DNA of 54,514 bases, from positions 1-54,514 of the forward strand of contig JBDREN010000105.1 in the NCBI GenBank assembly GCA_043819795.1. Direction: 5' to 3'. This DNA comes from Elusimicrobiota bacterium. GTDB taxonomy: Bacteria > Elusimicrobiota > Elusimicrobia > UBA1565. The notes under the pieces are model-generated. The model made no database searches, was not told the DNA's origin, and saw only the letters and a program-made list of their open reading frames with translations. Below are positions 1 to 29,060 of this stretch, piece after piece. The translations under genes and the position numbers were made by a program. How positions within the stretch are numbered: the first letter of the stretch is position 1; the number at the start of each line of letters is the position of its first letter.

Positions 1-950
1 TTTGATGCTCACCCCGTTCGTCGAGGCGGTGTTGTTCGCGTCCTGGTCGTCATCGTCGGCCGAAGCGCTCAGGTCCGCGCCCTCCCCGTCCACGGCCACG
101 GCCACGGGGCACGGCCCGGCCAGGCCGGAGAGTCCGTCCGCGCACTCGAAGCGCACCTCCACGTCGACGTTGCTCCAGCCTTCCAGACCCGTGCCGGGAG
201 CGCTCGAGGCCGTGATGACCGGCGGGGTCCGGTCGATTTTGATCCCCTCCAGCGTCGCCGACGCGCTGTTCCCGGCCAGGTCCGCGACCTCGCCCGATGC
301 GCTAAGGTCCGCCCCCTCGCCCTCCACGGTCTCGGAGCCGGGACAGGCTCCCTCGGCCAGGCCCGAGCCGTTGTCGGAGCAGGCGAAGCTCACCGTCACG
401 TCGCCGCTGCTCCAGCCATCCTGCCCCGTCGCTGCGGAGCGCGAGGCCGTGATGCTGGGCGCCGTCCGGTCGATCTTGATCCCCTCAAGCGTCACCGACG
501 CGACGTTTCCGGCCAGGTCGGCCACCTCGCCCGACGCGCTCAGGTCCGCGCCCTCGCCCTCCACGGTCACGTCGCCGGGGCATGCGCCTTCGGCCAGGCC
601 CGAGCCGTCGTCGGAGCACACAAACGTCACCGTCACGTCCCCGTTGCTCCACCCATCCTGGCCCGTGGCCGCCGAGCTCGACGCCGCGATGGCGGGAAGC
701 ATCCGGTCGATTTTGATCCCCTCGAGCGTCACCGACGCGCTGTTGCCGGCCAGGTCGACGACCGTGGTCGAGAAGCTCAGCTCCGCGCCCTCGCCCGCGA
801 CCGGCTGCGGGTCCGCGCACGCGGGCTCGGGCAGGCCGTGGTTGTCGGAGCACTCCAACGTGATCGCCACGTCCCCGTTGCTCCAGCCATCCTGGCCCGT
901 GCCCGGCGCGCTGGAGACCACGACGGTGGGAGGCGTCATGTCGATCGTCA
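1..950 (-). repeat. At least 4 tandem ~237-bp (79-aa) Ig-like (OmpL47-type, DxAGN-containing) domain repeats at the C-terminal end of the visible giant ORF; the array may continue beyond the window
   Basis: Minus-frame translation gives repeated units ...TAPSITASRSAATGQDGWSSGDVTVSFACSDNGSGLAEGACPG..VEGEGADLSASGEVADLAGNSASATLEGIKIDR... The plus shadow ORF 2..1033 shows the same 79-aa periodicity. Confidence 0.7.
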
Positions 951-3900
951 CGCTCGCGGAGGCCGTCCCCTTGTTGCCCGTCCGGTCCGCCATCTCGAAG
1001 GCCGCAGCGCGCTCCCCCTCCGCCATCGCGTAGGTGGTCTCGGCCGTGGGCTCGCCCTCGATGCGCTGCCCCTCCTCGCCCAGCCCGAAGAGAAGCGTCA
1101 TGCTCCCCGCGCCTTCCGCCAGCACGAAGTAGTCCCGCGGGCTCCCGTCCAGGCTCGCCGTCAAGGTGGCCGGGGCCGCCCCCGAGCCCGTATCCGAGAA
1201 GGCCAAAGCGAACTGGGGGCTGGCGACGTTCTGCAGGGCCCCGGCCGGTACCATCGCGGCCACGGCCGGCGACGTGCGGTCCACAGCGAAGAGCCCGAAG
1301 ATCGAGGCGAGCTCGCTCAGCTCGGCCGACAGGCAGCCGCTCTCCTCGTCTAAGGCCGCGCTCAGTTCCTGCCAGGCGGGCTCGGCGTAGTGGTACAAGA
1401 AAACCTCGCCCGCCGCGACGCCGTTGTCCGCCAGCACCTGCGGGTCGTAGCACATCCTCAGCGCGCCCGCCGGGTCCAAGCTCGCCCCGTGCGGCCCCAC
1501 ATCGTAGAGGCGTCCGACCGGGAACAGGTCCTGGCTGTGGCTGGCCGCCAGCAGATAGGCCCCGTCGCCCGCCGTGTCCACCGCGGAGATGGCGATCTCG
1601 AGCGCGGCGGTGAGGCTCAGCTCCGGCTTGCCGTTGACCTCGTCGGCGCTCTCGAAGGTCCCCAGCGCGTGGATCAGCGCCGTATCCGAGGCATCCTCCT
1701 TGCCGTCCGAGGCGGCCAGCTCGGCCGTGTAGGTGTCGGCCTTCTGCGGCGTGAAGCTCGGCGTCAACGTATCGGCGCCCTCGACGCTCACGGGGTCCCC
1801 GGCCGAGTCCTTGAGCGTCCAGCCGTAGCTGACCGCGTCCTCGGGGTCCTCGTCGAAGGCCGTGCCACTCAAGGCGACCAGATCCCCGACGTCGACGGTC
1901 TGGTCCGCCCCCGCGTCCACCGTGGGCGGCCTGTTCGGAGGCAGGGTGGTCGCGCCGCCCAGGTCCGTGTAAGGCGTCTCGATCCCGTCCTGGTTCCTGG
2001 CCTTCACCCGGGCGTAGTACCCCGTTTCCGGGTCGAGCCCCGTGAACGTGTGGCTCAGATCCGTGATCCAGCCGCTCTCCATCGGGCTCGCGAAGCCCGG
2101 ATCGGCCGCGAGCTGGGCGGAGTACTCCGTCCCGGGCGGGTTCCTGTTGCCGCCCCATGCCGCCGTGACGCGCTGGGAGCGGGCGTCCCGGAAGGAGTCC
2201 GGGGTCCCCTCGAAGGAGAGGACCCTCCGGTTCGAGTGGTCCGCGAACCACAGCGCCCCGCTGCCGTCGAAGGCCATCTCTCGGGGAGCGTCCAGCCTGT
2301 TTTGCGCGGTGGTGTAGATCTCGGACTGGAAGTCCGGCTGGCCCAGGACCGTCGAGGCCGGCATCCCGTTCGAGAAGGGCGGCTCGAAAACCAGGACGCG
2401 GTGATGCCCCGCGTCCACGACATACGCCTTCCCGGAGGCGTCGAAGGCCAGCGAATGGGTGTAGTACGTGTTGGTCTGTGTGGGCGCTGTTGGGAAGGGG
2501 GACGTGAAGGTCTCCTTGCCCAGCACGAGGTTCGGCTCCTCGTAGTTCCCGGATGGCGGGCTGAAGCGCAGCACCCGGAGGTGGCTTCCGTCAGCGACCC
2601 ATATGTTGCCGTCCGCGTCCACGCTCACGCCGCGGGGCTGGTAGAGGTCCTTGCCCAGATGGCGGACTCCGCTGGAGGTGAAGTCCGGCTGGCCCAGGAC
2701 CAGGTCCGCGGCCTGGTGGTCGCTGAAGGGGGGGCTGAAGCGCAGCACCCGGTTGTTCATCATGTCCGCGACCCACATTCTTCCCGAAGCGTCCACAGCG
2801 ACGCCGATCGGTCGGTTGAAGCCGCTCTGCGTGGTGGCCGCTCCGGTCGTCGTGAAGTCCGCCTGGCCCAGGACCAGCGAGGCCTCCATGTGGGTCGAGA
2901 AGGGGCGGTCGAACCGGAGCACGCGATGGTTCTCGGAGTCCGCGACCCACAGATTGCCGGCATTGTCCAGGGCGATGCCGTAGGGATTGCGGAAGGTGCG
3001 CCGATCCGTGCCCCTGCCGGTCGAGGTGAAGTCCGGCTGGCCCAGCACCAGAGAGGCGCTCTGGAGTCCTCCGGCTTGGAGCGGGTCGTAGCGCATCACC
3101 CGGTTCGAGAAGTAGTCGGACACCCAGAGGTTTCCGGATGTGTCGAAGGCCACGCCGATGGGGCCGCACATGCTCGTCTGGGTCGCCGGCTGGCCGTTGC
3201 TCACGTTGCAGTATTCCTTGGTGTTGAAATCGACCTGGCCCAGGACGAGGTCCGCGTTCTGCCCCGTCTCAAAAGACCTCGCCGGCACCGGCCGGCTGGC
3301 GAGGGTGCGCGCGCTCGCCGGGCCGGCGAAGGCGCCAGCCCCCATGGAGTTGACAGCTTGCACACGCGCGCTGTACAGCGTATCGGGGATGAAGCCGCCG
3401 TCGTCGACGCTTGTCGCATCCGTCCGGAACGTATGGACTTCACCGGTGAAGTCGGCGGAGGCCGAAACCTCGAGCGTATAAGACTGGGCGCTCGCGACCG
3501 CGTTCCAATGGAAGCCGAGCCCCCCGGCGCCCGAGGCGGAGGCGGACAGCCCGGTCGGCGCGGGGGGCGGCCCCTCGTAGATCGTGATATCGAAGGTCCT
3601 GGTGAAGATGCTGTCCTGGGCCTGGCCGTCGTCCGCCGTCACCGTGATCGTGACTGTGCCGCTGCGGCCCGCAGCCGGCTGGTAGCTCAAGGTGCGCGTG
3701 TCGCCCGAGCTCGTGATGGCCGGGTCGGGGACGATCAAGGGGTCGCTGGAAACCGCGCTGAAGCTCACCGTCTCGGGGTCGTTGTATCCCGCGAACACCC
3801 CCGTGATCGCGACCGTCGCCTCAGGGCCGTCCATGGGCGCCGCCTGGTCCGCGATCTCGTCGAAGAACGGCGGGTTGTTCACGTTCAGCACGACGATCGA

Positions 3901-6900
3901 CGCCAACGCCGTGTCGGACTCCAGGCCGCCGTCGCTGACCTTGAATCGGACATAGTCGAAGCCGTAGTATCCGGTTTCCGGCGTGTAGGTCAGGTTCGGC
4001 GGCGTGCCCGAGAGGCTCCCGTGGTCCGGTCCGGACACCACGGAGTAGACGGGAGCCTGGCCCGTGCCCCTCAGCGTGAGGGCCACGGCGGTGTTCTCCT
4101 GCGTCTGGACGGACAACGCCTCGGCGGCCGGGAAGCTGACGCCGGAGCCGAAGATCTGGACGCGGTTGTTGCCCGCGTCCGCCACGCAGATCCTGCCGCC
4201 CGCCCCGCTCGCCACGTCGAGGGGATCGATGAACTGGCCTTGGCCCGAGCCGTAGCCTCCCCACTCGGTGAGGTGGCTCCCCGAGGCGTCGAACTTCTGG
4301 ACCCGGGCGTTGTTGTCCGACGGGTTGTAGGGGTTCCTGGGCTCCGTGATGAACACGTTCCCGGAAGAATCCGTCCCGACGCCGTAGGGATACTTGATCT
4401 GGCCCTTTCTGCTGCCGTAGCTGTCCCATTTCCCCAGGAAGGTCCCGTTGGGGTCGAACATCTGCACGCGGTTATTGCGGGGGTCGCTCACCACGATATT
4501 GCCGGAGGCGTTCACCGCGATGCGCTTCGGCTCGTTGAACTGCCCGTCGCCGGTCCCGGAGCTCCCCCACTTCAGCAGGAATGTCCCGTTGGAGTCGAAC
4601 TTCTGCACCCGGTTGTTCCTGTCCGCCACATAGACGTTGTTGGCCGAGTCGACGGCGAGGCCGCTCGGGAGGGAGAACTGGCCGTCGCCGCTCCCGTTGT
4701 TGCCCCACTTCGTGATGAACTCCCCCGTCGGCCCGAGTTTCTGGATCCGGTAGTTGTAGAAGTCGGCCACATAGATGTTCCCCGCCGCGTCGACCGCCAC
4801 GTCGATGGGCCTGTAGAACTCGCCGTCTCCGCTGCCGTGGCCGCCCCCGGCCTTGCCCCATTTGGCCAGAAACCGCCCCATGGGGTCGAACTTCTGTATC
4901 CGGTCGTTGTTGGTGTCGGCCACGTAGATGTTGCCCGAGGAGTCCATCGCCACCGCGTTCGGGGCGTTGAGGCTCCCGTCGACGCCTCCGCCCCAATCCT
5001 CGATGAAGCCGCCCTCGGTATCCCACTGCCGCACCGTGTTCAACGAGTAGTTGGGGACGTACACGATGCCCGACGGGCCGACATGGATGTCCGCGGTGGC
5101 GTCATTGACGGTCGTGGCCGGGTCGTTGAACGCGTCCCACTCCTTGAGCAGCTGCCCCGTCGAGGAGTATTTCTTGACGCCCGAGTAATACGGCCATTCG
5201 CCCTGGCGGGCCACGACATACACCCTGCTGAAGCGGTCCACCGCCAGATCGGGGTAGCCGCCCGGGGCCGCCCACGACGCGAGCAGGTTCCCCTCGGAGT
5301 CGAACCGATTGATGCCCATGCTCACTCCCGTGGCGTAGACGTCGTTCCGGGAGTCCACGGCCACGCTCTGGATGTAGTTGCCCCCTGCCCAGGACTTCAA
5401 GAACTGGCCCTGCGCGTCGAACTTCTGGATGCGGGCACCTCCCGCATACTCCCCGACGTAGACGTTGCCGTCGGCGCCCACGTCGATGCCGAAGGGACCG
5501 CCGTTGAACTGGCCGTTGCCGGTGCCAGCGCTCCCCCACGTCAGCAGCTGGTTCCCCTCCGAGTCGTACTTGATGATCCGGTTGTTGTCCCGGTCCGACA
5601 CGTATACGTAATCGCCGGAAGAATCCACGCCGACGCCGCCCAAGTACCGGAAGCTTCCGAAGGTCTTGAGGTGGTTGCCCGCCGGGTCATGCTTGTGGAC
5701 GCAGCAATAGTTCTGGCCCACGTAGATGTTGCCGGCGTTGTCCGTCGCGATCTTGAACGCGGAGAACTTGACCGCCTTTCGGGGGATCTGCGCCAGGAAC
5801 GGCGGCGGGCTCTCCGGGGGGGGCACCACCGAGATGTTCACAGCGGCCGGCACGGAGTCCACGACCCCGTCGTTGACCGTGAAGGTGAAGCCGTCCCCTC
5901 CCAGATAGCCCAGAGCGGGCAGGTAGGTCACACCGGGCGGCGTCCCCTCCAGCGTCCCGTTGGAGGGCTGGGTGACGACGGCGAAGGCGAGCGCGGCTCC
6001 CTCGTTGTCCGATCCGGTCAGGGTGATCTGCCGGGCCCCGTTCTGGACCGCCTGCGCCGTCTGCGGATCGGCCACCGGCCGGTCGTTGCGGACCGCGGTC
6101 ACGAGGGCCGTGTCGTCGGTGCTGAGCCACCCGTCGCTCACCGTCAGCCGCACCTCGTACGTCCCGTATGCGTCGGCCTGGAACTGAGCCTTGTCGACGG
6201 GGGGTGACACCGTGATCTCCAAACGCGGGCGCTGCGCAGCGTCGCCTTCCGCGGGCACGATATAGACGAGTTCTTGCGTGGGTATGGAGACTTCGTTGGT
6301 CGCCCGGATGCGGAACTGGGGCGCCAAACCGCGGCTCAAAGCCTCCCGCACGGCCGCGGTCACGTCCAGAGACGTGTACCCTCCCCGGACGGCGCTCCCC
6401 AAGAACGTCGCCACACCGGCGAGCACCGGCGGCTGGGCGTCGTCCGTGAGCTCGAGCGTGTCCCCGAAATCGACCAGGTCCACGATGACCGGTCCGATGT
6501 CCACGTCATACGCTGAGGACACGTAGAGCTTCAAAATGGCGCGTTCGACGGTGGCGCCCGGCGGCATGAAGGAAACGTCGAACCCCATGAACGAGCGGAC
6601 GGGGCGGTTCCCGCCGAAGTCCCCGGCGAACAGGGTGTAGCCGGTGTTGACACCGTCGGGCGTCGCTCCCGCGAACTGGATATAGCCGTCAAGGTACGGC
6701 CCGCTCGCTCCCGGCGTCGAGATCACGTTTTCGGTCTGCGTGAAGCCGCTGACCGCGCTTCCGGCCGGTTTCGTCAGAATGCTCCACGTATAGCTGATGG
6801 GACGTTCCTCCGCGTCGTAGCTCCCGCTGCCGTCCACCATGGCCACGGCCCACTGCGGCAGCTCCAGGTCCGGGCCCGCGTCCGCCACCGGGGCGATGTT

Positions 6901-9900
6901 GGGCGGGCGGACGAAATACATCACGCGGTAATTCCCGGTGTCCGCCACGGCCAGGTTCCCAAGGCGGTCGAAGGCCACTCCGTAGACCTCGCATATCCGG
7001 CTTTGAGACCGTCCGCACCCCGTCGTGTTGAATTCGGTCCGTCCCAGGACACGCGAGGCGGCCATGCCGGTCTCGAACGGCGGCCTGAACCCGAACACGC
7101 GGCTGTGGTCGGAGCCGGCGACCCACAGGCTGCCTTCGGCGTCGAAGGCGATGGCGTCGGGATAGGAGAGCCTGGTCGGGCCGTAGGGATACCTGGTGTT
7201 GGACGTGAATCCGTCCTGGCCGATGACGAGGTCCGCGCTCATCCCGGTGCTGAACCCGTTGACGGGATCGGGCCTGAAGCGCAGGATCCGGTGGTTGTCC
7301 CTCTCCGAGACCCACAGGTCGCCCGAGGCGTCGAAAGCCACCGCGCGCGGCGAGTTCATGGCGCCGGCGGTGGTGCCGGCCCCGCTCAGCCCGAAATCGC
7401 TCTGCCCGATGACGAGTTCCGCGCTCATCGCGCTGGAGAAGCCCTGGAGGGGGTCCGGCGAGAAGCGAAGGACCCTGTGGTTGCGCGTGTCCGCGAGCCA
7501 GAGTCTGCCGTTCCCGTCGAAGCCCACGTCCCGAGGCCCATCCAGCTCGCCGGCTCCCGAGCCCGCGGCGTTGGCCTCGAAACCGGCCTGGCCGAGCACC
7601 AGGTCCGCGTCCATCCCGTCGCCGAACGGCGGGGTGAAGCGCAGAACGCGGTTGTTTCCGCTGTCGGCCACCCAGAGCCTCCCGGCGGGGTCGAACGCCA
7701 TTCCGTTGGGAGAGTTGAGCCTGTCCGCCGCGAGGCCGGAGCCGCCGTCCGCGAGGTTCTCCTGGCCCAGGACCAGGGACGGCTCCGCGCCCGTGCCGAG
7801 CGGGGCATCGTAGCGCAGCACGCGGTGCTTGCTCCCGTCGCTCATCCAGACGTTGCCCGATCCGTCGAAGAGCGTCCGCAGCGCGTTGACGCTTCCGAAT
7901 GCCGCGTAATCCGGAGCGCCTAGCACCACGCTCGCGTCCTGGCCGTTCTGGAAGGCGCCATGCGAGGCGGCCGGCGGAGCGTGCGCGGTGATCTCCACGG
8001 TGTCCTGGTCCGTGCCCCCTTCGCGGCCGTCGGACACGGTCAGCCGCAGCGTGTAGACGCCCAGGGAATCCGCCACGAAAGCGGCCGCGGTCTCGCCCGC
8101 CCGGTGATGGAGGACCGGGCCGCCGCCGGGAGAGGACACGATCTCCCAGCCCGCGATGCTCACCGGATCGCCGTCCGGGTCGCTGCCGCCGCCCTCCACC
8201 ACGACCAGCTCCCCCTGGTCCACAGTCCGGTCCGGTCCCGCGTCGGCCGCGGGGGGCGCGTTGTCGGACCGGGTCGTCGTGCCGCCCAGGAGCGTGTACG
8301 TGGTCTCCACGCCCATCTGGCCCTTGGCCTTGACCCGCGCGTGATAGGCCGTCTCCTTCCGCAGGCCGGGGAAAGTGTGGCTGGTATCGGTGATCCAGCC
8401 GCTCTGGAGCGGCGCCGGGAAGCCCGGATCGTCCGAGAGCTCGACGAGGTACTGCGTGCCCGGCGGATTGCCGGGCGCGGCCCAGCGCACGACGAGCGAG
8501 AACGTGTTCACATAAGGGAAGTTGTCGAGGGTCCCGGCGAAGGCGAGGAGCCTCCTGTTGTTGTAGTCCGCCACCCACAGCGTGCCGTCATGGAAGGCGG
8601 CCCCGCGGGGGTCGTCCAGCCTGTCCGGGCCGAGACCGGAGGCGCCCGAGGTGAAATCCGCCTGCCCGAGCGCCGCGGCCGCCGGCATCCCGTCGGACAG
8701 AGGCGGGTCGAACACCATGACGCGATGGTTGGTCTCGTCGCCCACGAAGACCTTGCCGGTCGGGTCGATAGCGATCCCCCACGTCTTTTTCGTGGCCGTC
8801 CGGGTGGTCTGATAGTCGCTCGCGTAGAGGTCCGGGTTGCCGAGCACGAGGTCCGCGCTCATGCCGTCCTCGAAAGGCGGGCTGAACCGGACCGCCCTGT
8901 TGTGATTGTAGTCCGCCACCCACAGCCTGCCCAGGCGGTCCACGGCCACGTGGTTGGGGTAGTACAGGCTGGCCGGACGGGCGACGTACTCGTAATGCGC
9001 GATGATGCGCGTGGCCGCCATCCCGTTGGAGAATGGCGGGCTGAATAGGAGCACCCGGCTGTTGTGCCGGTCGGCCACGAAGACGTTGCCCGCGCCGTCG
9101 GCGGCCACGCCGGCGGGCTGGTACATCCGGCTCAGATCGTTCCCATAGACGTAGCTGCGGGTCGTGAAGCTGTCCTGGCCGAGCACCAGCGAGGCGGCCA
9201 TGTCCGTGCCGAAGGGCGGCTTGAACATCAGCACGCGGTTGTTCTGCCGGTCCGCGACCCACAGGTTGCCGTGGGGGTCGAAGGCGATGGATTCCGGATA
9301 CCAGAACCTCCTCTCGCTCACCCCGGCGTCTATGAAGTCGAAGCCGGCCTGGCCCAAGACCAGGGTCGCGTCCCGCAGGCCGGTGTGCGGCGGCTCGAAC
9401 ATGAGGATGCGGTGGTTCTCCATCTCCACCACCCACAGGTTGCCCGACGCGTCGAAAGCCATGTCGACAGGGCTGTTGATGCTAGCCCGGCTCGGCCCGA
9501 ACGCCGCGTTCGAGCTCGCATCGGCCTGTCCCAGCACCGCCTGCGCCGCCTGGCCGGTCTGGAAGCTATAGTAAGGCGCGGGGGCATAGACGGATGTGGT
9601 GCCGCTCGCCGCGGCGCAGAACGAGCTCTCCCCTCCGGAGTTCGCGGCCTTGACCCGGACGTAGTACAGCGTGTCGGGCGAAAGCCCTATGACCGAGGCC
9701 CTGTTCGTCTCCACGAGCTGGGAGAGCACCTCCCCCGTGAACCCGGCGGCGACCGAGGCCTCGACCGTGTAGGTCTCCGCCCCGGCCGAGGTGGCCCACT
9801 CCGCCTCCAGCGAGGTCGCCGTCGCGCCCGCGATCCCCAGACCGGAAGGCGCGGCCGGAGCGGCCTCGTAGACCGTGATGGCGAAGCTGCGCGAGAAGGT

Positions 9901-12900
9901 GTCGCCCGGCGGCCGGCCGTCGTCCGCCGTGACCGTCACCGTGACCGTCCCGCTCCGCCCCGGCGCCGGCTGGTAGCTCAGGCTGCGCACAGCGCCCGCC
10001 CCCGTGATCACCGGGTGCGGCACGACCGAGGGATCGCTGGACACCGCGCTCATGCCGACGGACTCCGGATCGTTGTAGCCCGCCGACACCCCCCCGATCG
10101 GGACCGTCTCCGCAGGGCCGTCCATGGGCGACGCCTGGTCCGCGATCGCGTCGAAGGAGGGGGGATCGTCCGCGTTGCGCACCACGATCGCCGCCGCCGC
10201 CGGAGCCGACTCCACGCCGCCCGCGCTCACCTTGAAGACGACGGCGTCGAAGCCGTAATACCCGCTCTGCGGCGTGTAGCTCAGGTTCGGCGCCGCTCCC
10301 GACAAGCTCCCGTGCTCCGGCCCCGACACCACCGTGTACGCCAGCCCCTGCCCCGTGCCCGTCAGCGTGATCGCCACGGCGGCGTCCTCCTGCGTCTCGA
10401 CGGCCTGCGCGTGGGCCACCGGCGGCGGGGCGCCCGCGCCGAAGACCTGAACCCGGTTGTTCTCGTTGTCCGCCACGTAGACCCTGCCGTCCGGACCCAC
10501 GGCCGCGTCCCTGGCGTACCGGAACTCCCCGGCGTCCGTACCCAGCGTCCCCCACGTCGTGAGCAAGCCGCCGGCCGCGTCGAACTTCTGCACCCGCGAG
10601 TTGTTCTGCCCCGGATCCAGGGGATTGCCGGCGTCGGTCAGATAGACGTTCCCCGAGGAATCCAGCGCCAGGCCGGCGGGATACTCCAGCTGGCCGTTCC
10701 GGTCCCCCGGGACTCCCCACTTGCTCAGGAACACCCCGTTGGGATCGAACACCTGCACGCGATGGTTGCGCGTGTCCGCCACCACGATGTTGCCCGACGC
10801 GTCCACCGCCACGCGCTCCGGCCTGTCGAACTCGCCGTTGCCCGCGCCCGGGGCGCCCCAGGAGGCGAGCAGGTTCCCGTTGGGGTCGAATTTCTTGACC
10901 TTATTGTTGTATTGGTCCATCACGTAGACGTTCCCGCCGGCGTCCACGGCGATGCCGGAGGGGAGGTAGAACTGGGTGTCCCCGCTCCCGCAGCCCCCTC
11001 CCCATTTCGTCGCGAAATTCCCGCCCGCGTCGAATTTCTGGACCCGGCAGTTATAGAAGTCCACCACGTACATGTTGCCGCTCCCGTCGACCGCCACGTC
11101 CATGGGCCTGTTGAACTGGCCGTCCCCGCCGCCCGAGTAGCCCTCCTCCCTGCCCCACCTGGCCACGAACCGCCCCGCCGGGTCGAACTTCTGCACCTGG
11201 TTGTGGTTCGTGTCGGCCACGTACACGTTCCCGGATGCGTCCACCGCCACGCCCGAAGGTCCCGCAAGGCTGCCGGGGCTCGTCCCGCCGAACTCGTCTA
11301 TGAGCCCGCCCTCCGCCGTGTAGCGCACCACCTTCCCCTCCCCGTGCCAATGGCCCGCGTATACGATCCCCGACGCGTCCACCGCCAGGTTCCCGACGTA
11401 GTCGCTGTCCGTGCGCCACTCCGCGCTCAGCAGCCCGTCCGAGGTGAACCGCTTGATCTTGCGCACCACCGGATCCTCGGCCGGCACCGGACGATACGCG
11501 GCGTACACCCGGTCGAAGCGGTCCACCGCCAGGCCGTTGGCGTCCTCCCCGTGCAGGCTCCACGCCGCCAGCTGGTTGCCGCTCGAATCATATTTCAGCA
11601 GGCTCCCCCCGCCCAGAACGAAGACGCCGCCGGTGGAGTCCACCCCCAGCGCCTGCATCCCCGCCCCCACGCTCCACTTCCCGAGAAAGCCGCCGCCCGA
11701 GCTGAACTTCTGCACCCGCTGGCCCGCGTTCTCCAGCACGTACACGTTGCCGGCCGCGTCCACCCCGATGCCGGTCGGCGTCTCGAACTGGCCGTCTCCC
11801 GAGCCCTGAGCGCCCCACTGCATGAGGAAGTTCCCGCCCGCGTCGAACTTCTGCACCCGGTGGTTGCTCGCCCCCGCCACGTACACGTTGCCCGCCGAGT
11901 CGAACGCCATGCCCCCGATCGTCCCGAACTGACCCGCCCCGCCCCCGCCCGCGCCCCACTTCAGCAGCAGGTCGCCCCGGATGTCGTACTTCATGATGCA
12001 GCAGCTGTGCTGCCCCACGTACCAGTTGCCGGACCTGTCCGCCGCCAGCTCGTAGCTCCCGTGCATGCCGGCGGCGCCGGACGGCGGGAGCTGCGCCAGC
12101 AAGGCCGGAGGGGCCTCGGGCAGCGGCACGACCGAGATGCCGACCGCCGCCTCATCGGAGTCCACCACCCCGTCGTTCACCTTGAAGCTGAAGCCGTCCG
12201 CTCCCAGGTAGCCCGGCGCGGGCAGGTAGGTCACGTTGGGAGGCGTCCCCTCCAGCGTCCCGTGCGACGGCGGGCTCACGATGGCGAAGCCGAGCTCCGC
12301 GCCCTCCCGGTCCGAGGCCGTCAGGGTGATGGGCAGGGCCCCGTCACGCACCGCCTGCGCCGTCTGCGCATCGGCCACCGGACGGTCGTTGCGCACCGCG
12401 GTCACCACCGCCGTGTCCACCGAGCTGAGACTCCCGTCGCTCACCGTCAGTTGCAGCTCATACGCCCCGTACGCGTCGGCCTGGAACTGCGCCCTATTCC
12501 ACGCCGGCGAGATCGTGATCTCCAGAAGCGGTCGCTCCGCGGCGGAGCGCTCGCTGGGGCTGAAATAGACCAGGCGTTGAGCGCCGACGGCGTATTCATT
12601 GGCGGCCCGGATCCGGAATTGCGGGACCAACCCGCTGCTCAAGGCCTCCCGCACCGCTTCGGTCACATCCACGGGATGGTATCCCGCCGCCGGATAGTCT
12701 TCCGACAAAAACGTCGCCGCATTCGAGACCAGGGCCGGCTCGGAGTCGTCCTCGAATTCCAGCGCCTCCCCGAAATCCACCAGGTCCACGATCGCGGGCC
12801 CGATCTCGGCGAGGTATCCGCCCCACACGTACATCTTCAGAGTGGCCTTCACGATGCTCGCGCCCGGGGATATGAAGGAAGCGTCGAAGCCCACATAAAC

Positions 12901-15900
12901 GTGGCTGACCATCTGCCCGCCGAAATTACCCAAACGGAGGCTGGAGGCGTCCCCTATGTCGACGCGATAGGACGTTTCCGACTCGGACCGGATGTAGCCG
13001 TCGGTGTACGGCCCGCTGTCGCCCGACGTGGACGGCGAGGAGACCGTGACCTCCGTCTGCGTGAAGCCCTCCACCGCGCTCCCGGCCGGCTTCGCCGCCA
13101 GCGTCCACGTGTAGCTCAGGGGCTGGCCGTCCGCGTCGGTGCTCCCGCTCCCGTCCATCGTGGCCACGGCCCACTGCGGCAGCTCCACGTCCGGCCCCGC
13201 GTCCGCCACCGGCGCGTTGTTGGCCGGCCGCAGGAAGTAGCTCACGCGCCTGGAGTTCGTGTCCGCGATGGCCATGTTCCCCTGGGGGTCGAAGGCCACG
13301 CCATGGCACCCGTTCAAGCTGGCCGCGGTCGGGGGCCAGGTTTCCCCGGTGGAGGTGAAATCGGCCTTTCCGACCACGCGCGAGGCGGACATGCCGTTCG
13401 AGAACGGCGGCCTGAACTCGAGGGCGCGGCCCACGTTCTCGGCCTCCACGACCCAGAGGCTGCCTTGCGCGTCGAACCCCACGTCCCGCGGATAGCGGAA
13501 CCGGCTCGCTTTGGTGTCGGCGACACTGGAGGTGAAGTTGTCCTGGCCGATGACCAGGTCCGCGCTCATCCCGCTGGCGAAAGGCGGGGAGAAGCGCATG
13601 ACGCGCCGGTTGTCGTTCTCGGCGACCCATAGGTTCCCCTCGGAGTCGAACGCCAGGCCGCGGGGCGAGTAGAGCGTGCTCGCGGTGGTGCCGTAGCCGC
13701 CTATGATGACGTCGGCGCTCATGCCGGTGCTCAGGGGCGCCTTGAAGCGGACCACGCGGTAGTTGCCCGTATCCGCCACCCACAGGTTCCCGTCCGGGTC
13801 GACGGCCACGCCCCAGGGGCCGGAGAGCTGGTCCGGGGCCCCGCCGGCGCCCCCCCAGCCGAAGTCCGCCCTGCCGATGACCATGTCCGCGTCCATCCTG
13901 TCCGTGAAGGGGGGGGTGAACCGCAGGACGCGGTGGTCCCTGTTGTCCACCACCCAGAGCCTTCCCGTGGAGTCGAACGCCATGCCCCTCGGCCAGAAGA
14001 ACCTGTTCGCCCCGCCGTAGCCGAAGCCGCCCAGAACGAGCGAGGCGTCCATGCCCCCGGCGAGCGGAGCGTCGTAGCGCAGCACCTCGCTCTTGCCCCA
14101 GTCGCTGACCCAGAGGTTTCCGGCGCTGTCGAACGCGACGGAATACGGATTGGACGAGCCCGCGTAGCTGGCGAAGTCCGGCTGGCCCACCACCAGCCCG
14201 GCCTCCTGGCCGTTCTGGAAAGCCCCGTCCGCGGCCGGAGGCAGGGCGTTCACGGTGAGCTCCAACGTATCCTCGACCGTGCCTCCCTCCCGGCCGTCCG
14301 AGACGGTCAGCCGCACCATGTAGATGCCCGCGGAATCCGCCACGAAGGCCGCCGTGGTTTCGCCCGGCCGCTGATGGACGACCGGAGCGCTGCCCTGGGG
14401 CGCGGACGCGACCCCCCATGTCAGCGTGACGGGGTCTCCATCGGCGTCGGCGCCGCTGCCGTCGACGACCACGAGCGCTCCCCGCGTCACCGTCTGGTCC
14501 GCGCCGGCCTCCGCCGTGGGCGGAGTGTTCGGAGGCAGCGTCGTCGCGCCCCCGAGGTCCGTGAAGGGCGTCTCCTCGGCGGTCTGGCCCTTGGCTTTGA
14601 CCCGGGCGTAATAAGCCGTATCCGAATCGAGCCCCGCGAAGGCGTGGCCGGCGTCCGTGATCCATCCGCTCTCCATCGGCGCCCCCGCGAAGCCGGGGTC
14701 GGCGGAGAGCTGCGCGAGGTACTGCACGCCCGCGGGATTCCCCGCCGCCGCCCACCTCACGGTGAGGGCATGGGCATCCAGGTGCGGGAAATCGTCAAGC
14801 GCCCCGGCGAAGGCCACCAGCCGCGCGTTGTTCCAATCGGCGACCCACAGGAGCCCCTCGTGGAAGGCGATCCCTATGGGGCTGGTCATACTGGCCGGAC
14901 CGCTGCCCCAGGCCCCGGAGACGAAATCGGTCTGCCCCAGCACCGAGGTGGCCGGCATGCCGTTGAAAAGGGGCGGGTCGAAGACGAGGACGCGGTGGGT
15001 GATGTTGTCGGACAAGAATACCTTGCCGGAGGGGTCGAACGCGATCCCGAGCGGGCAGCGCATGGTCGTCTGGTTGTCGTAGTAGTTGCTGACGACGAAA
15101 TCCCCCTGCCCCAGGACCAGAGCGGCGTCCATGCCGTCGGCGAAAGGCGGGCTGAACATGAGCGCCCGGTAGTTGCCGTTGTCCGCCACCCACACGTTGC
15201 CCGACGCGTCCACCGCGACCTGGAAGGCCCAGCGCATCCTGTTTCCGGCGCGGGCCTCGCCGCCCGAGGTGAAGTCCGCCTGGCCCAGGACCAAAGAAGC
15301 GTCCATCCCGTCCGAGAAGGGGGGGGTGAACTCGAGCACCCGGTTGTTGTAGGCGTCGGCCACCCACACGTTGCCGGAGGCGTCGGCCGCCACGTCGAAG
15401 GGCTGGTTCATCCCGCTCCGGGTCGTGGCCTCGCAGCAGGCGGTGAAGTCGGGCTGGCCGAGGACGACCGACGCGTCCATGCCGGACTCGAAGGGAGGGC
15501 TGAACATGAGCACCCGATGGTTGGATCTGTCCGCGACCCATAGGTTGCCGGAGGGGTCGAAGGCGAGGCCCATGGGCATCGAAAGCCTGTCGCGGTCCCG
15601 GCCGGCGGTGGAGGACGTGAGGTCCTCCTGCCCCAGGACGATCGTGGCGGCCCGGAGGCCGTCGTGCGGCGGCGGGAACATGGTCACGCGGTTGTGCTGT
15701 CCGTCCGCCACCCAGAGGTTGCCGGAGGAATCGAACGCGATGTCGGCGGGAGTGTAGACGCTGGTCGCGCTCGGCCCGAAACGGCTGACCGTGTCCAGGC
15801 CGGCTTGCCCCAGCACGGCCGCCTCCTCCTGCCCGTCCTCGAAGCGATAGAAAGGCGCGGGGGCTTGCGCCGGCGTGTATCCGCTCGTCGGGGCGGAAAA

Positions 15901-18900
15901 GCCGCTCTGCCCGAAGGGATTGGAGGCGATGACCCGGAGGTGATACTGGGTGTCGGGGGAGAGGTAGGTGGCCTTCGCGGCGTTCGTCCGCGAAGCGTAC
16001 GACAGGACCTCTCCCGAGAACGCCGGCGAGACCGAAGCCTGGAGCGTGTAGGACTCCGCGCCGGAGGAGGCGTCCCATCGGGCCTCGAGCGACGTCGCCG
16101 AGGCGCCGACGATCTGCAGCCCGGCGGGCGTCTGCGGAGGCACGGGCGTCGCCCCGACGGCGGTGGCGAAGGCGGTGGGGACCCCGGCCGAGGACTGCGC
16201 CCGCGGATCGGTCTCGGCGCCCTCCCCGTTGACGGCCCGGACGCGGACGGAGTATTCGGTCTCTGGCTCCAATCCGTCGATCGTGGCGCTGGCGGCGGTG
16301 TGGGCGTCGTCGAAGGATATCGCCACCACGTCGTGCGCCGCGAAGCCGTCCTTCGAATAGCTCACCTCGTAGCGGGTATGGCCCGGGTTGGACGCGTCGC
16401 CCCACGAAACGGAGAGGCTGGTCAATCCGGCCGGGGCGACCGTCAAATCCGCGGGGGGGTTGGCGTGGGTGTAGGCGTGCGGGTCATCCGAGAACGGCCC
16501 GGGGACGCCGGACTGGTCGAAGCTCACCACGGACCAGTGGTAGTGGGTGTTGGGCGCGAGGCCCGGGCCCGCGTCGTTCGAGGAGCTCCCCGGGTGGGGC
16601 ACGTCCGGCTCGACGCGGGTCAGCTCGGGGTCGGTCAACGAGGCGAAGGGATGGTCCCCGGCCGCCCGGTAGACGGCGTATTTGCCGACGTTCGGCTCGG
16701 TCCGCGGGGTCCAGCTCACCGTCGCCTCGCCGGGCCCCTGGACGCTCACGCTCACGGCGGTCACGGCCTCGGGCGGAGCGGCGGCCTTGAGCGCGAAGCT
16801 CTCGGTGGCCGTCTGGCCGTCGTTGTTGGTCGCGGTGAACTCGATCCGGTTGAGCGTCTCGGAAGGCGCCAGCCCCGTGATGCCCGCGACGGTCAGATAA
16901 TGCGGGTCCTTGTCCGTCGTCCCGCCGGAGGCCGGCTCCATGCTGAGTCCGGAGTCCGGAACTTCGGCATAGTGCGCGCCCCCGTCGACGGTGTAGCGGG
17001 CCGAGAAGGCGCCGCCCGCCTCGATCGCGAAGTCCGCGAAGTCCGCGAAGTCCTGCGCGATCTCCGCGGGGCTTCGGGCCGCGCCCAGGATGCGGAAGCT
17101 GTCGACGATCCCCCAGTTCTGGGTTCCTCCCCCGGCGTTGCCGATGTAGTTCACGTCCTGCGTCAGCTTGACCGAAGAGGTGCCCACGTGGTCCGCGTCG
17201 ATGTAGAAGAGGGTCTGGCCGCCGGTGCCGACCGCCGTCAGAAGGTGCCAGCCGGACAACGGGTCGACGTCGTAGTTGCAGGAATAGAACGCCCCGCTAT
17301 AGACGCCGAGAAGGCCGTCGTTCCGGACGAGGACGTGATGGTAGTTCGGCCCGTACTGGGTCAAGGTCCGCCAGCTGCCGTGGCTGGCCAGCGGGAATCT
17401 GGTCCAGGCCTGAATGGTCCAGTCCGAGCCCATCGGGACATCGGGGACGGAGACGTAGTCGGAGGAACTGTCGAAATTCAGGGCCTTGCCGAAGAGCCCC
17501 TCGGTCCACGCCGGAGGCCCGTTGAGGCTGCCGTTCTCGCCGTTGCCGGACGCGTCCGAGACCGAGGTCCCCGTCCCTTCGTCGAACTGCCACAGGCCCC
17601 TCGTCTGCCCGGCGACGGCCCCGAGCGGAGCGCCCGTGGCGACCATGGTCTCGCTCGGACGGTCCGCGAAGTCCTCCGCGATCTCCTCGGGAGTCCGGGC
17701 CGCGTCCAGGATGCGCACGCTGTCGACGGAACCCCAATTCTGGGTTCCTCCCCCGGCGTTGCCGATGTAGTTCACGTCCTGCGTCAGCTTGACCGAAGAG
17801 GTGCCCACGTGGTCCGCGTCGATGTAGAAGAGCGTCTGGCTGCCGGTGCCCACCGCCGTCAGAAGGTGCCAGCCGGACAATGGGTCGACGTCGTAGTTGC
17901 AGGAATAGAACGCCGCGCTATAGACCCCGAGAAGGCCGTCGTTGCGCACGAGGATGTGATGATAGTTCGGCCCGTACTGGGTCAAGGTCCGCCAGCTGCC
18001 GTTGCTCGCCAGCGGGAATTTGGTCCAGGCCTGAATGGTCCATTCGGAGCCCATCGGGATGTCGGGGACGCTGACGTAGTCGGAGGAGCTGTCGAAATCC
18101 AGGGCCTTGCCGAAGAGCCCGTCCGTCCACGCCGGAGGCCCGCTGAGGCTTCCGTTCGCACCGTTGCCCGAGGAGTCCGCCGCCGAGGCCCCGCTTCCCT
18201 CGTCGAACTGCCACAGGCCTCTCGTGTGTTCGGCGACGGCCCCGAGCGGAGCGCCCGCGGCCCCCGGCGCGGTCACGGTCGCGCGCGCGTAGTCCTCGTG
18301 GATCTGCTCCGCGGTGGCGGAGTAGTTCAGGATGCGCATCTCGTCCAGGAGCCCTTCATAGTACCCGTAGTAGTAGCTGAAACCGGAGACGGCGGCCGAG
18401 GGATAGACATTCGCTCTGGGGCTGGTCAAGCCGGTCCGCACCAGGGCCCCGTTGACGTACAGGTGCGGCCGCTTGTCCGCGTAGACCACCGCGATGTGCG
18501 TCCAGCCCGAGATGGCGGCGTTGTACACGAGCAAAGAAGGGATGTATTGGTGCCCGTGCTCGAAGACGCTGATCCCGTCGGTCCCGACCGAGACCCCCGC
18601 TCCCGCGTCGGCTCCCACGAATCCTCCGTGCACCGGGGCGATCGCGTAGCGCTGTCCCGAGAGCCCGGCATAGCCGGAGGTGGATTCCGCGGTGGCGCTC
18701 CGGGTCGCGGCGGGATAGGCCCAGAACTCGATCGTGAAGTTGTTGGGGGCGCCGGTGAGCAGGCCCCCGGCTCCGGCGCAGTCGTCTATCCCGTCGAAGG
18801 AAAGGGCCTCTCCGACCTTGCCGGCGGCCCACCCCGTCCCGTTCTGGAGGGTGAAGGCCGCTCCGTTTCCGGAGGCCTCCGAGGCCGCGGTCCCGGAGCC

Positions 18901-19182: not shown

Positions 19183-19299
19183 ATCCCTACCCCCACTGCG
19201 AATACTCCGCTTCGAACAGCGAAAGCGACCCACGCCGGCTTCGCCAGGACCTTTCCGTCCGTTGATACCGCATATCGGTTCTCCTCAATTAGGGTAGCC

Positions 19300-19390
19300 G
19301 ACATTCTGGTCCTGGTCAATGACAACGCGTTGACTAGAACGTAAGATTTAGGCTTATAAATAAGGAAGTTTTTTTATTTGTCAGCAGAAT
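19300..19390. promoter_or_regulatory. AT-rich island (ttgactagaacgtaagatttaggcttataaataaggaagtttttttatttgtcagcag) ~120-200 bp upstream of the giant gene start; candidate promoter/UP region
   Basis: The local AT-richness is striking in a ~70% GC background. TTGACT...TATAAA on plus and CTGACA...TATAAG on minus have non-ideal spacing, so no confident -35/-10 pair. Confidence 0.3.
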
Positions 19391-19585
19391 TCAGTGCTCA
19401 GCAGAGGCCGGATCCGCGGATCGGCCGACATCGCCGCAGGACCGGGCTTTCCTCGTCGGAAGACTCTTTAGGATGCGGCGCGACGCACATGCGCGCGTCT
19501 TCAGACGGACTGGAAAATGTCAGCAGCCCGCCCCAAAAGAGGAGCTCCGGGCGGGGGGAAGCACCTGGCCGCCGGGCCGGCTCAC

Positions 19586-20989
19586 CTATTCCCGGTCAAA
19601 GCCTTTGCCCGGGCGGACCTTGAGGACCATCCCCGGGCGGATGAGGCGGGGATCGCGGATATCGTTGAGGCGGGCGATGCTCTTCACTGTCGTCCGGTAG
19701 CGGCTCGCGATCTTGCCGAGATAGTCGCCTTTGCGAACCTGGTAGCGGACGAACTGCGGCCCGGGATTCCAATCCTTGACTTTCGCCAGCTCGGACAGGA
19801 AGGCGTCTTTCGTCCCCTTGGGGACGCGCAGCGGATAGCCCTTGCGTTTCTTCGGCGTGCACCAGGCCCTGAGCTCGGGATTGAGGCGCTGCAAGACCGC
19901 CTTTGTGGTCCCCGCGCACCTGGCGGCGATTTCGAGGTCGAGGTCTCTTTCGATGGCGACGATGTCGTAGGGCTCGGGCTTTTCGTACTCCACGTTCAGG
20001 CCGTAGCGCTCGGGATTCTCGCCGATGAGCACGCAGGCCATGAATTTCGGGACGTAGTGGTGGGTCTCTTGCGGGAGGGCGCCCCGTTCCGAAAGGGTGG
20101 CGAAGTCGGTGGCGCGGGAGAACTGGAGGTCCCGTCCGATGCCGTTCTCCCCGCGGTTGTAGGCGGCGATCGCCAGGTGCCAGTCCCCGAACCATTCGCG
20201 TAGCTCCGAGAGATAGCGGATGGCCGCCCGGGTCGCCTTCTCGGGGTCGTAGCGCTCGTCGACCCAGTAGGAGACCTCGAGGCCGTACCCCCGCCCCGTG
20301 AAGGGCATGAACTGCCACAGGCCCCCCGCGCCGGAGCGCGACAGGGCCTTGAGCTTGTACTCGCTCTCCGCCATCACGAGGTAGAAGAGCTCCTCGGGCA
20401 GGCGCGCCTTTCGCAAAGCCGATACGATCATGTCCCGGTAGCGGCCCGAGCGGGCGAGGGCCGCCGCCACATCGGCGGGCCGCTTGCTCGTGTAGAGATG
20501 GACGAACTTCTTGGTGGTCTCGTTGTCGGGGTCGATCTCGATGACGTGCGGCCGCGCGCGGGGCTCGGGGATGCCGTTCGCGGGCTCCGTTTGGAGCTCA
20601 TCGTCCCGGACGTCCAGGGTGGAGGGGCTCTCCGTGTTCTGCTGGGCGCCTTCCCAGGTCCGGACCTTCTCGAGCATGCCGAGAAAGTCCTCCCGAAGCT
20701 CGGTCGGGAGCCCGTCCTCCTCCAAGAGGGACGTCAGGATGGCGAAGGAGCGCTCCAGGCGGGCGCGGCCGTCGTGGATCCGGCCTTCGCGGAAGTCCTC
20801 GAGGCCCGCGTCGTAGTGCTGTCCGGCCTTGTGGAGACGATCGAGCAGCAGCACCTCGGGATCTTCGGGCTGCGCGACGACGGGCTCTTGCCGCGGGTCC
20901 GGGACGGGAGCTTCCTGGGCGGACACGCACCGGTGGGCGCGGCAGAAGAGGACCGCCAGCAGGATGGCCAGGACGCGGATCAGTTTCAT
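19586..20989 (-). CDS. mltD: Membrane-bound lytic murein transglycosylase (SLT domain) with C-terminal LysM domain, MltD-like; signal peptide
   Basis: ESEYKLKALSRSGAGGLWQFMPFTGRGYGL...AAYNRGENGIG (SLT catalytic core); YQVRKGDYLGKIASRYRTTVKSIARLNDIRDPRLIRPGMVLKV (LysM); N-terminal MKLIRVLAILLAVLF. Confidence 0.85.
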   Translation of the reverse strand: MKLIRVLAILLAVLFCRAHRCVSAQEAPVPDPRQEPVVAQPEDPEVLLLDRLHKAGQHYDAGLEDFREGRIHDGRARLERSFAILTSLLEEDGLPTELREDFLGMLEKVRTWEGAQQNTESPSTLDVRDDELQTEPANGIPEPRARPHVIEIDPDNETTKKFVHLYTSKRPADVAAALARSGRYRDMIVSALRKARLPEELFYLVMAESEYKLKALSRSGAGGLWQFMPFTGRGYGLEVSYWVDERYDPEKATRAAIRYLSELREWFGDWHLAIAAYNRGENGIGRDLQFSRATDFATLSERGALPQETHHYVPKFMACVLIGENPERYGLNVEYEKPEPYDIVAIERDLDLEIAARCAGTTKAVLQRLNPELRAWCTPKKRKGYPLRVPKGTKDAFLSELAKVKDWNPGPQFVRYQVRKGDYLGKIASRYRTTVKSIARLNDIRDPRLIRPGMVLKVRPGKGFDRE

Positions 20990-21198
20990 ATCGTCGCTTA
21001 TCTTATCAAACCTGCCGCGGGCCGCGGAAATGAGGGTGCGATGCGGGCGCCTCGTTTGAAGGGGTGCTCTGGCCCGGTCACCGACTGTATGCCACGGGCC
21101 GCTAAGCCCTGCCCGCCTCCGGCGGGCGATCCCTTGATAACTCAGCGGTGCGAGCGACCGGTCGGCGCTTCGCGCAACCGGCGCTGACCCCGCCGAAA

Positions 21199-21236
21199 GA
21201 AGAGCGCTCCCGGGCTTGGGCCCGGGAGCGCTCTTC
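21199..21236 (-). terminator. Rho-independent terminator candidate downstream of the SPFH gene: 17-bp perfect stem gaagagcgctcccgggc/gcccgggagcgctcttc, loop ttgg, then CUUCUUUCGG on the transcript
   Basis: Perfect inverted repeat read in sequence ~25 nt past the stop at 21260; U-rich tail on the minus strand. Confidence 0.6.
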
Positions 21237-21259
21237 GGAAGGCTTGGTGTCCGGTGGGC

Positions 21260-27927: not shown

Positions 27928-28037
27928 CCGATGAAAGAACGGCCTGCCGGGAAAGGAACGCCGGAAAACATGCGGCTTTCACATAGGCTGGCGCGGGGGC
28001 GGGGAGTGCGGCGCTGGCATCCGAAAGGGGAGGCGCG

Positions 28038-28475: not shown

Positions 28476-28482
28476 AAGAAAC

Positions 28483-28980: not shown

Positions 28981-28991
28981 AGGCGGGGTCA

Positions 28992-29050
28992 GGCTTGACT
29001 TTCGGGACAAACCCGGGCGGCCCCGGCGAATACTTCCCGAAAGTCAAGCC
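28992..29050. repeat. Perfect 16-bp inverted repeat ggcttgactttcggga / tcccgaaagtcaagcc with 27-nt GC-rich spacer, immediately 3' of the 4-TM gene and abutting the right direct repeat
   Basis: Read in sequence. Candidate terminator or recombinase-binding palindrome. Confidence 0.8.
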
Positions 29051-29060
29051 CGGCACCGTG

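Follow-up and report, generated by a model that had tools for sequence, protein, structure and literature searches.

The locus described here raises the question of how a coding block of ~6.3 kb came to be repeated within a single giant gene, and whether the number of its copies is still free to change. Giant genes are known in the PVC group, Elusimicrobiota included (bioRxiv 10.1101/2023.11.21.568195), and most giant proteins of bacteria act at the surface or in adhesion, Elusimicrobia being rich in them (PMC11573180; bioRxiv 10.1101/2023.11.21.568195). Among long proteins, old and diverged repeats are the rule and recent ones are not (bioRxiv 10.64898/2026.06.07.730766).

The gene comes from an uncultured Elusimicrobiota MAG, and our window, the whole stretch of DNA analysed (54,514 nt), is the entire contig. 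Starting from an ATG at 19182, the gene runs along the minus strand, remains open down to nt 1 and leaves the contig there. The preliminary description, which gave no strand, was right that a giant gene exists, but the contig end truncates it and the size of at least 6,394 codons (6,394 aa) is a lower bound. The frame has no stop from 19284 to 1, whereas its two minus-strand alternatives contain 144 and 37. GC at the three codon positions is 0.64/0.52/0.91, and the third-position value (GC3, 0.914) fits that of adjoining genes (0.89-0.95); the gene is native to its genome. Its upstream neighbours encode SLT-LysM and SPFH proteins. Plus-strand ORFs at 1390-6207, 9064-13632 and similar positions overlap the gene on the opposite strand and are its antisense shadows. 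The gene itself is missing from the ORF list because it runs past the window end. Where genomic GC is high, the frame antisense to such a gene lies open for kilobases, so an ORF list that skips end-truncated genes displays only wrong-strand shadows. The visible gene divides as follows.

1..19182, minus strand: visible giant gene (open frame; start and signal peptide in the translation; 3' end cut at nt 1)
19099..19182, minus strand: putative Sec-type signal peptide, MKSERHWKLQSTVVLVAASVLWGARASA (aa 1-28), from reading the translation
16171..19098, minus strand: N-terminal region with three Laminin_G_3 (ConA-like lectin) and two fn3 domains (Pfam)
9883..16170, minus strand: super-repeat unit 1, aa 1005-3100 (domain matches, MAFFT, blade motifs)
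3592..9882, minus strand: super-repeat unit 2, aa 3101-5197 (module order as in unit 1; collinear over 2,064 aa)
1669..3591, minus strand: partial super-repeat unit 3, aa 5198-5838, with fn3, propeller A, fn3 and PKD only (identity to units 1 and 2)
1..1668, minus strand: tail after the super-repeat, aa 5839-6394 (TRF, translation)

We sought to establish the repeat at both the nucleotide and the protein level. When nt 1-19400 were compared with themselves by blastn, the strongest off-diagonal paired 5783-9851 with 12086-16130 (69.6% identity over 4,157 nt, 1,673 bits, offset 6,303). Others paired 3547-4953 with 9838-11250 (73%, offset 6,291) and 1875-2403 with 8202-8727 (offset 6,327), while 1883-2979 matched 14479-15570 (67%) at an offset of 12,596, about twice 6,298. 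The ~6.3-kb off-diagonals (offsets 6,291-6,327) stand far above the controls, as codon-shuffled versions of the gene (n=10) reached a maximum of only 29-35 bits. In the translation, 80-aa windows found a partner at +2,088 to +2,110 aa, unbroken from aa ~975 to ~3,720, and a second at +4,190 to +4,256 aa over aa ~1,000-1,600; the unit offset thus varies by no more than 22 aa across ~2,750 aa. The same windows show that the similarity of unit 3 to the other units stops past its PKD domain. Together these comparisons uphold the in-frame, head-to-tail tandem super-repeat proposed earlier, with two full units and one partial (2.3 units by our count); its extent, first placed at 1400-16000, is close to the measured nt ~1669-16170 (aa 1005-5838).

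A full unit comprises ~2,100 aa and 13 modules, in the order fn3, propeller A, fn3, PKD, propeller B, a PKD domain split by a DNRLRE domain, Big_9, propeller C, propeller D, Big_9 and an Ig-like module. Besides the three LamG domains of its N-terminal region, the visible protein carries nine propellers and two DNRLRE domains, the latter two kinds located as follows within the units.

14797..15870, minus strand: propeller A1, six ~58-aa blades with a GNLWVAD motif (blade motifs; Pfam NHL, SGL)
8527-9591, minus strand: propeller A2, counterpart of A1
2200-3300, minus strand: propeller A3, counterpart of A1
13228..14235, minus strand: propeller B1, six blades (blade motifs; B1-B2 identity 54%)
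6907-7971, minus strand: propeller B2, counterpart of B1
10435..12087, minus strand: predicted propellers C1 and D1, 12 blades of ~39-54 aa (AlphaFold2 model, Foldseek)
11302-12087, minus strand: propeller C1, one half of the 12-blade run
10435-11301, minus strand: propeller D1, the other half
5005-5790, minus strand: propeller C2, counterpart of C1
4144-5004, minus strand: propeller D2, counterpart of D1
12397..13221, minus strand: split PKD of unit 1, insert ~12514-12996 (PKD_4, K319L_PKD, DNRLRE_dom)
6094-6900, minus strand: split PKD of unit 2, insert ~6211-6690 (second copy)

Pfam recognises the propellers with NHL scores of 429 and 416 bits (cutoff 20). There are 54 blade motifs altogether, arranged per unit as two runs of 6 and one of 12; those of A1 lie at aa 1149, 1207, 1265, 1323, 1381 and 1439. 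An AlphaFold2 model of the 12-blade run of C1 and D1 (pLDDT 86.9, 47 strands) was matched by Foldseek to solved NHL domains, among them those of Thin, TRIM71 and TRIM2 and the structures 6d69, 9jur, 8j72 and 7b96, with a TM(target) of 0.90-0.93 and an rmsd of 1.3-2.0 A. Each match extends over ~282 columns and so covers half the model. Homologs carry D-like units with a ~281-aa period. The run is accordingly predicted to form two six-bladed NHL propellers, as modelled for C1 and D1. Given the blade motifs, this model and the solved six-bladed domains that match half of it, we count 24 blades in four six-bladed propellers per full unit, where three NHL propellers had been proposed. The propellers also score as SGL- and ScyF-like, which leaves a small chance that some are catalytic.

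The PKD and Big_9 modules attributed to each unit are indeed present, but the ConA-like lectins sit N-terminal of the repeat, and a unit has a single lectin-like module, the DNRLRE/CBM96-like domain nested in PKD. Ahead of the insert the PKD_4 and K319L_PKD profiles match over their first ~41-58 positions only, and the C-terminal strands of PKD continue past it. In unit 1 the insert matches NCBIfam DNRLRE_dom (NF033679) at positions 4-164 of 164, scoring 39.7 bits (cutoff 34). CBM96 matches weakly in both units; in unit 2, where the region is 64% identical to that of unit 1, this weak match (E 1.8e-4) is the sole profile match.

The regions flanking the super-repeat hold repeats of their own. 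Laminin_G_3 scores 118.6 bits in three stretches at aa ~100-710 (Pfam). LamG copies 2 and 3 (17041-17717 and 17662-18338) are 87.5% identical at the nucleotide level by blastn and represent a young duplication. The tail opens with an unassigned region, after which nt 1-1065 encode tandem Ig-like repeats of 79 aa with Cys. The contig end falls inside one of them, and the C-terminus with any sorting or anchor signal would lie past it; TRF reports a period of 237 nt, 3.6 copies and 79% matches, and Big_13 and Big_3_3 match weakly. The signal peptide MKSERHWKLQSTVVLVAASVLWGARASA, as read from the translation, has a basic N-region, a hydrophobic core and an AXA site, without a lipobox Cys. Pfam and NCBIfam assign only LamG, fn3, PKD, NHL, DNRLRE and Big_9 to the protein. 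Since these are solely binding or structural modules and a signal peptide precedes them, we infer a Sec-exported, extracellular and non-enzymatic protein.

Having defined the units, we assessed how far they have diverged. Units 1 and 2 align collinearly over 2,064 aa at 55% identity, and the ~735 aa of unit 3 that align with each of them do so at 43-45% (MAFFT). Codon-aligned nucleotide identity between units 1 and 2 is 67.8% over 6,192 nt, with 73-80% reached only locally; the divergence reported earlier is therefore real, though the figure of ~75% was somewhat high. These values support an old intragenic amplification, as first suggested. Between the same two units pS is 0.43 and pN 0.29, and dN/dS lies between 0.31 and 0.83 in all 15 windows of 150 codons. 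For a conserved protein the overall ratio, 0.57, is high, and it may reflect relaxed constraint on the units; it is also inflated, because dS is compressed by a GC3 of 0.91. Informative sites favour pairing units 1 and 2 (142, versus 75 and 61 for pairings with unit 3), against which unit 1 is nearer to unit 3 than to unit 2 at aa ~1230-1310. The order of duplication would follow from identity, and faster evolution of unit 3 could be an alternative.

Without exception, the closest pair is formed by modules at the same position: A1-A2 share 54% (A1-A3 49%) versus 40% for A-B, D1-D2 59% versus 40% for C-D, Big_9a 76% versus 43%, and PKD 63% versus 36%. This pattern speaks against the same module order having arisen by independent domain shuffling with no en-bloc duplication. 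Although such modules are common, promiscuous and arrayed in tandem in many proteins, here 13 of them recur in identical order with conserved linkers, at an offset steady to 22 aa over 2,750 aa, and we regard the chance of this origin as close to negligible. It is also extremely improbable that the repeat is an assembly artefact, whether a wrongly expanded repeat or a strain chimera. The contig was assembled from a metagenome and ends within the giant gene, in a repeat, but about one nucleotide in three differs between copies, with several indels besides. An assembler cannot yield such copies from one template, even short reads would map to them uniquely at a nucleotide identity of 68%, and frame and coding periodicity are intact throughout; the earlier dismissal of an artefact holds. 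Many surface proteins with near-identical repeats vary in size, and the units here are tandem and in frame, as they would be in an active, recombination-prone locus whose unit number shifts between strains by unequal homologous recombination. The hallmark of size-variable, contingency-type surface proteins is near-identity of copies at the DNA level, whereas the units here share 67.8% of their nucleotides, with in-register identical runs of 27, 22, 19 and 18 nt at the longest. RecA-type recombination requires a minimal processing segment, and these runs are at or below that size, in mismatch-rich surroundings. The suggestion that the architecture is recombination-prone thus finds no support at 32% overall divergence, and we consider a size-variable locus very unlikely. 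The units should be too diverged to recombine homologously, and their copy number should be stable. Within the giant gene, long identical runs occur only in the LamG pair, which shares one of 95 nt, and perhaps in the 237-nt tail repeats. No ortholog carrying the cassette was found in the genome, metagenome and protein collections searched.

A different possibility is a teneurin-like or RHS polymorphic toxin, of which the visible 6,394 aa would form the N-terminal targeting portion, with the YD shell and toxin past the contig end, where the C-terminus lies. Among the top matches to the unit, many are RHS/YD or DUF6531 proteins that carry NHL repeats, and the NHL propeller matches a solved bacterial teneurin-like protein (9ifo). 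These RHS/YD matches, however, span propellers only (24-45% of the query), the Pfam profile search gave no YD, RHS or DUF6531 match across the visible 6,394 aa, which stop short of the C-terminus, and the closest collinear relative, P0491, passes from the same fn3-propeller-PKD modules into Ig-like repeats resembling those of the tail and ends without RHS or toxin families. We therefore think a toxin unlikely. A giant adhesin of the T1SS RTX type (LapA/SiiE/MpIBP type) was also considered and rejected: a Sec-type signal peptide is present, the upstream neighbours are not T1SS genes, and the profile search of the 6,394 aa available found no RTX match; both the C-terminus and any genes downstream lie past the contig end. 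Very unlikely, too, is the idea that the cassette copies have diverged in binding specificity, giving several receptor-recognition stations (nine propellers, DNRLRE-in-PKD, LamG) on a chain of >6,400 aa by which an uncultured episymbiotic or predatory Elusimicrobiota attaches to other cells, with the adjacent SLT-LysM lytic transglycosylase acting in the same process. Lifestyles of this kind have been proposed for other lineages of the PVC group that are rich in giant genes. Strands and loops of the propellers are similarly conserved between copies (52% versus 48% identity, p = 0.35); this comparison shows no loop-focused diversification, and so there is no positive sign of differing specificities among the copies.

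The reading we favour, and hold to be probable, is a fossil en-bloc tandem duplication, now stable in copy number, within a giant extracellular protein that is exported by the Sec route, is not an enzyme and probably serves as a multivalent adhesin. The whole ~2,100-aa, 13-module block would have been copied as one, presumably by unequal crossing-over between then-similar fn3-propeller-fn3-PKD segments flanking it. The partial third copy is the most diverged (43-45% aa); a shallower split separates units 1 and 2, and all copies have stayed open and in frame, with dN/dS below 1 in every window. The Ig-like spacers may form a long modular stalk displaying beta-propeller and lectin-like binding heads, in which case duplication would have brought a longer stalk and more heads. 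Judged by its domain content, the protein likely acts as a multivalent adhesin or in other interactions at the cell surface.

Surface proteins are reportedly treated as a class of giant bacterial proteins by Reva and Tummler (2008). The protein resembles giant bacterial surface proteins in its length (>5,000 aa), its signal peptide, its exclusively Ig-like, lectin-like and propeller modules and its many old, diverged internal repeats; it differs in that a 13-module, 2,100-aa cassette repeats rather than a single domain type. No named family was found for it in the collections searched. In the public protein set searched, the NHL-rich P0479 (5,915 aa) has its own ~1,980-aa super-repeat (51% identity, aa 81-3281), hierarchically built of 420- and 510-aa units. 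It is only 23-33% identical to the giant protein, with no collinear cassette, and shares its mode of growth but not its family. P0491 (4,548 aa, low-GC organism, from the same set) is collinear over fn3-A-fn3-PKD-B at 33-39% over ~1,000 aa, matches unit 3 best and is also collinear with the tail Ig-like repeats; it lacks the 2,100-aa super-repeat, the C and D propellers and DNRLRE-in-PKD, and its 1,400-aa N-terminus is unrelated. The NHL propellers of TRIM71/LIN-41, TRIM2/3, Brat, Thin and the PknD sensor domain (1rwi) are matched by phmmer with E down to 7e-61, but these solved propellers are single and belong to a kinase sensor or to intracellular proteins that bind RNA or protein, whereas here nine lie on one secreted chain. 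The A-band super-repeats of titin are likewise fixed patterns, of 7 and 11 Ig/fn3 domains, in tandem in one giant protein, yet in many more copies, none of which comes near the present unit of 2,100 aa in length; this likeness would be architectural only, with no homology outside the Ig and fn3 folds.

Block copying is an ordinary growth route of giant proteins, and the architecture is typical of the class. The gene offers a clean example of stepwise giant-protein growth, from blade to propeller, to propeller pair and to 13-module cassette, with the last of these steps frozen at 55% identity.

The super-repeat lies in a giant gene read on the minus strand. No stop codon interrupts its frame between nt 19284 and nt 1, against 144 and 37 stops in the other two minus frames; it has an ATG at 19182 followed by a Sec-type signal peptide (read from the translation), and its GC1/2/3 of 0.64/0.52/0.91 is like that of neighbouring genes. 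Together, these features place a gene of at least 6,394 codons on this strand. A recurring DNA motif, once reverse-complemented, encodes GNLWVAD..N.RV, the NHL blade signature. In this window of 69% G+C, the plus strand also carries a row of long ORFs in one frame with single stops between them (1390-6207, 7960-9048, 9064-13632, 13933-15543, and 15664-19344). They translate into Arg/Ala/Gly-rich nonsense, and all of them are antisense shadows that the giant gene casts in a genome whose GC3 is 0.91. The true gene extends past the edge of the window, which is why the ORF listing shows the shadows alone. The DnaK encoded in the window is 100% identical to MFH1724612.1 from an Elusimicrobiota MAG. 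The window is the whole contig, so the contig end truncates the gene within tandem repeats of 237 nt. These Cys-containing Ig-like repeats (79 aa each; nt 1-1065, minus strand; 73-80% nucleotide identity) probably broke the assembly, hence the missing 3' end of the gene.

Self-blastn produced off-diagonals at offsets of 6,291-6,327 and 12,596 nt, the largest covering 4,157 nt at 69.6% identity and 1,673 bits, while ten codon-shuffled versions of the gene gave at most 35 bits off the diagonal. In the protein, all 80-aa windows between aa ~975 and ~3,720 have a partner at +2,088 to +2,110 aa, and windows from aa ~1,000 to ~1,600 have a second partner at about +4,200 aa. MAFFT alignment of the first two units gave 55% identity over 2,064 aligned positions with few small indels (67.8% nucleotide identity when codon-aligned). 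The third unit, cut short at ~640 aa, matches each of the others at about 44% identity. A preliminary description had proposed an in-frame super-repeat of ~6.3 kb. Self-blastn, shuffles, protein windows and MAFFT all bear this out, and its extent can be refined to nt ~1669-16170, or 2.3 units:

9883-16170, minus strand: unit 1
3592-9882, minus strand: unit 2
1669-3591, minus strand: partial unit 3

Mapping of Pfam and NCBIfam models and of blade motifs gave the module order of one unit:

Modules 1-4: fn3; propeller A (six 58-aa blades); fn3-like module; PKD
Next: propeller B (six blades); PKD split by a full-length DNRLRE/CBM96-like domain; Big_9
Last: twelve shorter blades; Big_9; Ig-like module of ~100 aa

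The twelve-blade stretch was modeled by AlphaFold2 with a six-sequence alignment (pLDDT 86.9). Solved six-bladed NHL domains of Thin, TRIM71, and TRIM2/3 superimpose on this model with TM scores of 0.90-0.93, and each covers just half of it, so the stretch forms two propellers. The D-type propeller has a repeat period of ~281 aa in homologs. Each full unit thus holds four propellers, not the three counted previously, and the visible gene nine. Lectin modules had also been assigned to the repeat; the three ConA-like lectin domains in fact sit N-terminal to it. The DNRLRE/CBM96-like domain is complete inside its PKD at 12397-13221 and 6094-6900 (minus strand), with 64% identity between the full units. 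Single-sequence AlphaFold modeling of the region reached a pLDDT of 37.5, so the nesting is read from profile coordinates only. Among the metagenome matches examined, no other locus had a PKD with a nested DNRLRE domain.

Each module finds its nearest match in the same-position module of the other units. Propellers A of units 1 and 2 are 54% identical (A and B, 40%), the two B propellers 54%, and the two D propellers 59% (C and D, 40%). Likewise, positional pairs exceed other pairs among the first Big_9 modules (76% vs. 43%) and the PKD modules (63% vs. 36-38%). This pattern rules out independent domain shuffling and reveals a growth hierarchy from blade to propeller, to propeller pair, to a cassette of 2,100 aa. 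At informative sites, units 1 and 2 share 142 derived states, against 75 and 61 for the pairings with unit 3, so unit 3 either split first or evolves faster. A stretch at aa ~1230-1310, where unit 2 has a degenerate blade, shows the opposite, unit 1-unit 3-like trend. A check of the first 700 aa of unit 2 for an unequal-crossover hybrid found mixed informative sites, with that one unit 1-unit 3-like stretch at the degenerate blade.

Both copies have remained coding. Neither has accumulated frameshifts or stops, and dN/dS between units 1 and 2 stays under 1 in each of the 15 windows of 150 codons; the overall value of 0.57 is inflated, since a GC3 of 0.91 compresses dS. Between units 1 and 2, conservation of propellers C and D does not differ between strands and loops (52% vs. 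48% identity, p = 0.35), so there is no signal of loop-focused divergence. The collinearity of these units, at their protein and nucleotide identities, upholds the view of an old intragenic amplification. One base in three differs between the copies, so an assembler could neither create nor confuse them, and the repeat is no assembly artefact. For the same reason the copies are poor substrates for homologous recombination. Their longest in-register identical runs are 27, 22, 19, and 18 nt, and the suggestion that the architecture is recombination-prone is thus not supported. The sole young repeat, and the youngest duplication in the giant gene, is a pair of Laminin_G_3 domains at 17041-18338 (minus strand), a 621-nt tandem with 87.5% nucleotide identity and a 95-nt identical run. 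Unequal recombination within the gene looks feasible in this pair only.

We found no other protein carrying the cassette in homologous-protein searches (with unit 1 and with a PKD-DNRLRE-Big_9 alignment), in scans of genome and metagenome contigs, or in a HMMER search of 1.84 billion representatives; matches were generic NHL, Big_9, or PKD. Contig loci L006, L007, and L010-L018 proved on inspection to be plain PKD/Big_9 arrays, and the locus of protein P0001 (L086) had an unrelated gene context. Of the collinear relatives, P0491 (4,548 aa, from an organism of low GC) is the closest. Its similarity extends over fn3-A-fn3-PKD-B, at 33-39% identity (best with unit 3), and over the tail Ig-like repeats, but it lacks the super-repeat. 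Visual inspection had hinted at a T9SS-type C-terminal sorting domain in both P0491 and the giant NHL-rich protein P0479; Pfam did not confirm it for P0491, and the idea was dropped.

The giant protein carries a signal peptide, matches no catalytic family, and consists entirely of modules that bind or act as spacers. Its sequence thus points to a multivalent binding protein, secreted or surface-attached, to which the duplication added eight propellers and lengthened the stalk by about 4,200 aa. RHS toxins are frequent among the propellers' database neighbours, and the visible gene lacks the C-terminus, as would fit a teneurin-like/RHS toxin whose toxin end lies beyond the contig. We consider such a toxin improbable, given that the visible 6,394 aa contain no YD/RHS signal and that P0491 also speaks against it.

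Around this putative binding protein gene, the following features were seen:

19586-22390, minus strand: directly upstream, an SLT lytic transglycosylase with a LysM domain, followed by an SPFH/band-7 protein that carries double zinc ribbons
About 19345-19385: TTATAAATAAGGAAGTTTTTTTATTTG, a strikingly AT-rich patch in the intergenic region 19183-19585 of a 69% G+C genome

A link between the upstream genes and the giant gene is speculative; in predatory bacteria, giant genes have been tied to cell-wall degradation (published preprint). The AT-rich patch is likely a promoter or regulatory region. A simple scan of 19183-19585 found one sigma-70 site, on the plus strand only, and no terminator. 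Elsewhere, G+C dips to 0.61-0.62 at 28001-30000 and 34001-36000, compared to 0.65-0.72 in the remainder, and no tRNA or Rfam match occurs anywhere in the window.

Published surveys agree with this picture of how giant proteins grow. Most bacterial proteins larger than 5,000 aa are NRPS/PKS or surface proteins, and Elusimicrobia are enriched in them (PMC11573180; bioRxiv 10.1101/2023.11.21.568195), and in long proteins ancient diverged repeats are usual while identical recent tandems are rare (bioRxiv 10.64898/2026.06.07.730766). Another giant NHL-rich protein, P0466 (5,356 aa; like P0479, from the public protein set), repeats every 510 aa at 65% identity, and multiples of this period reach 2,070 aa. 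P0479 (5,915 aa) has its own super-repeat of ~1,980 aa (51% identity) over smaller units of 420 and 510 aa, so kilobase-scale cassettes are a recurrent route of growth for giant NHL proteins.
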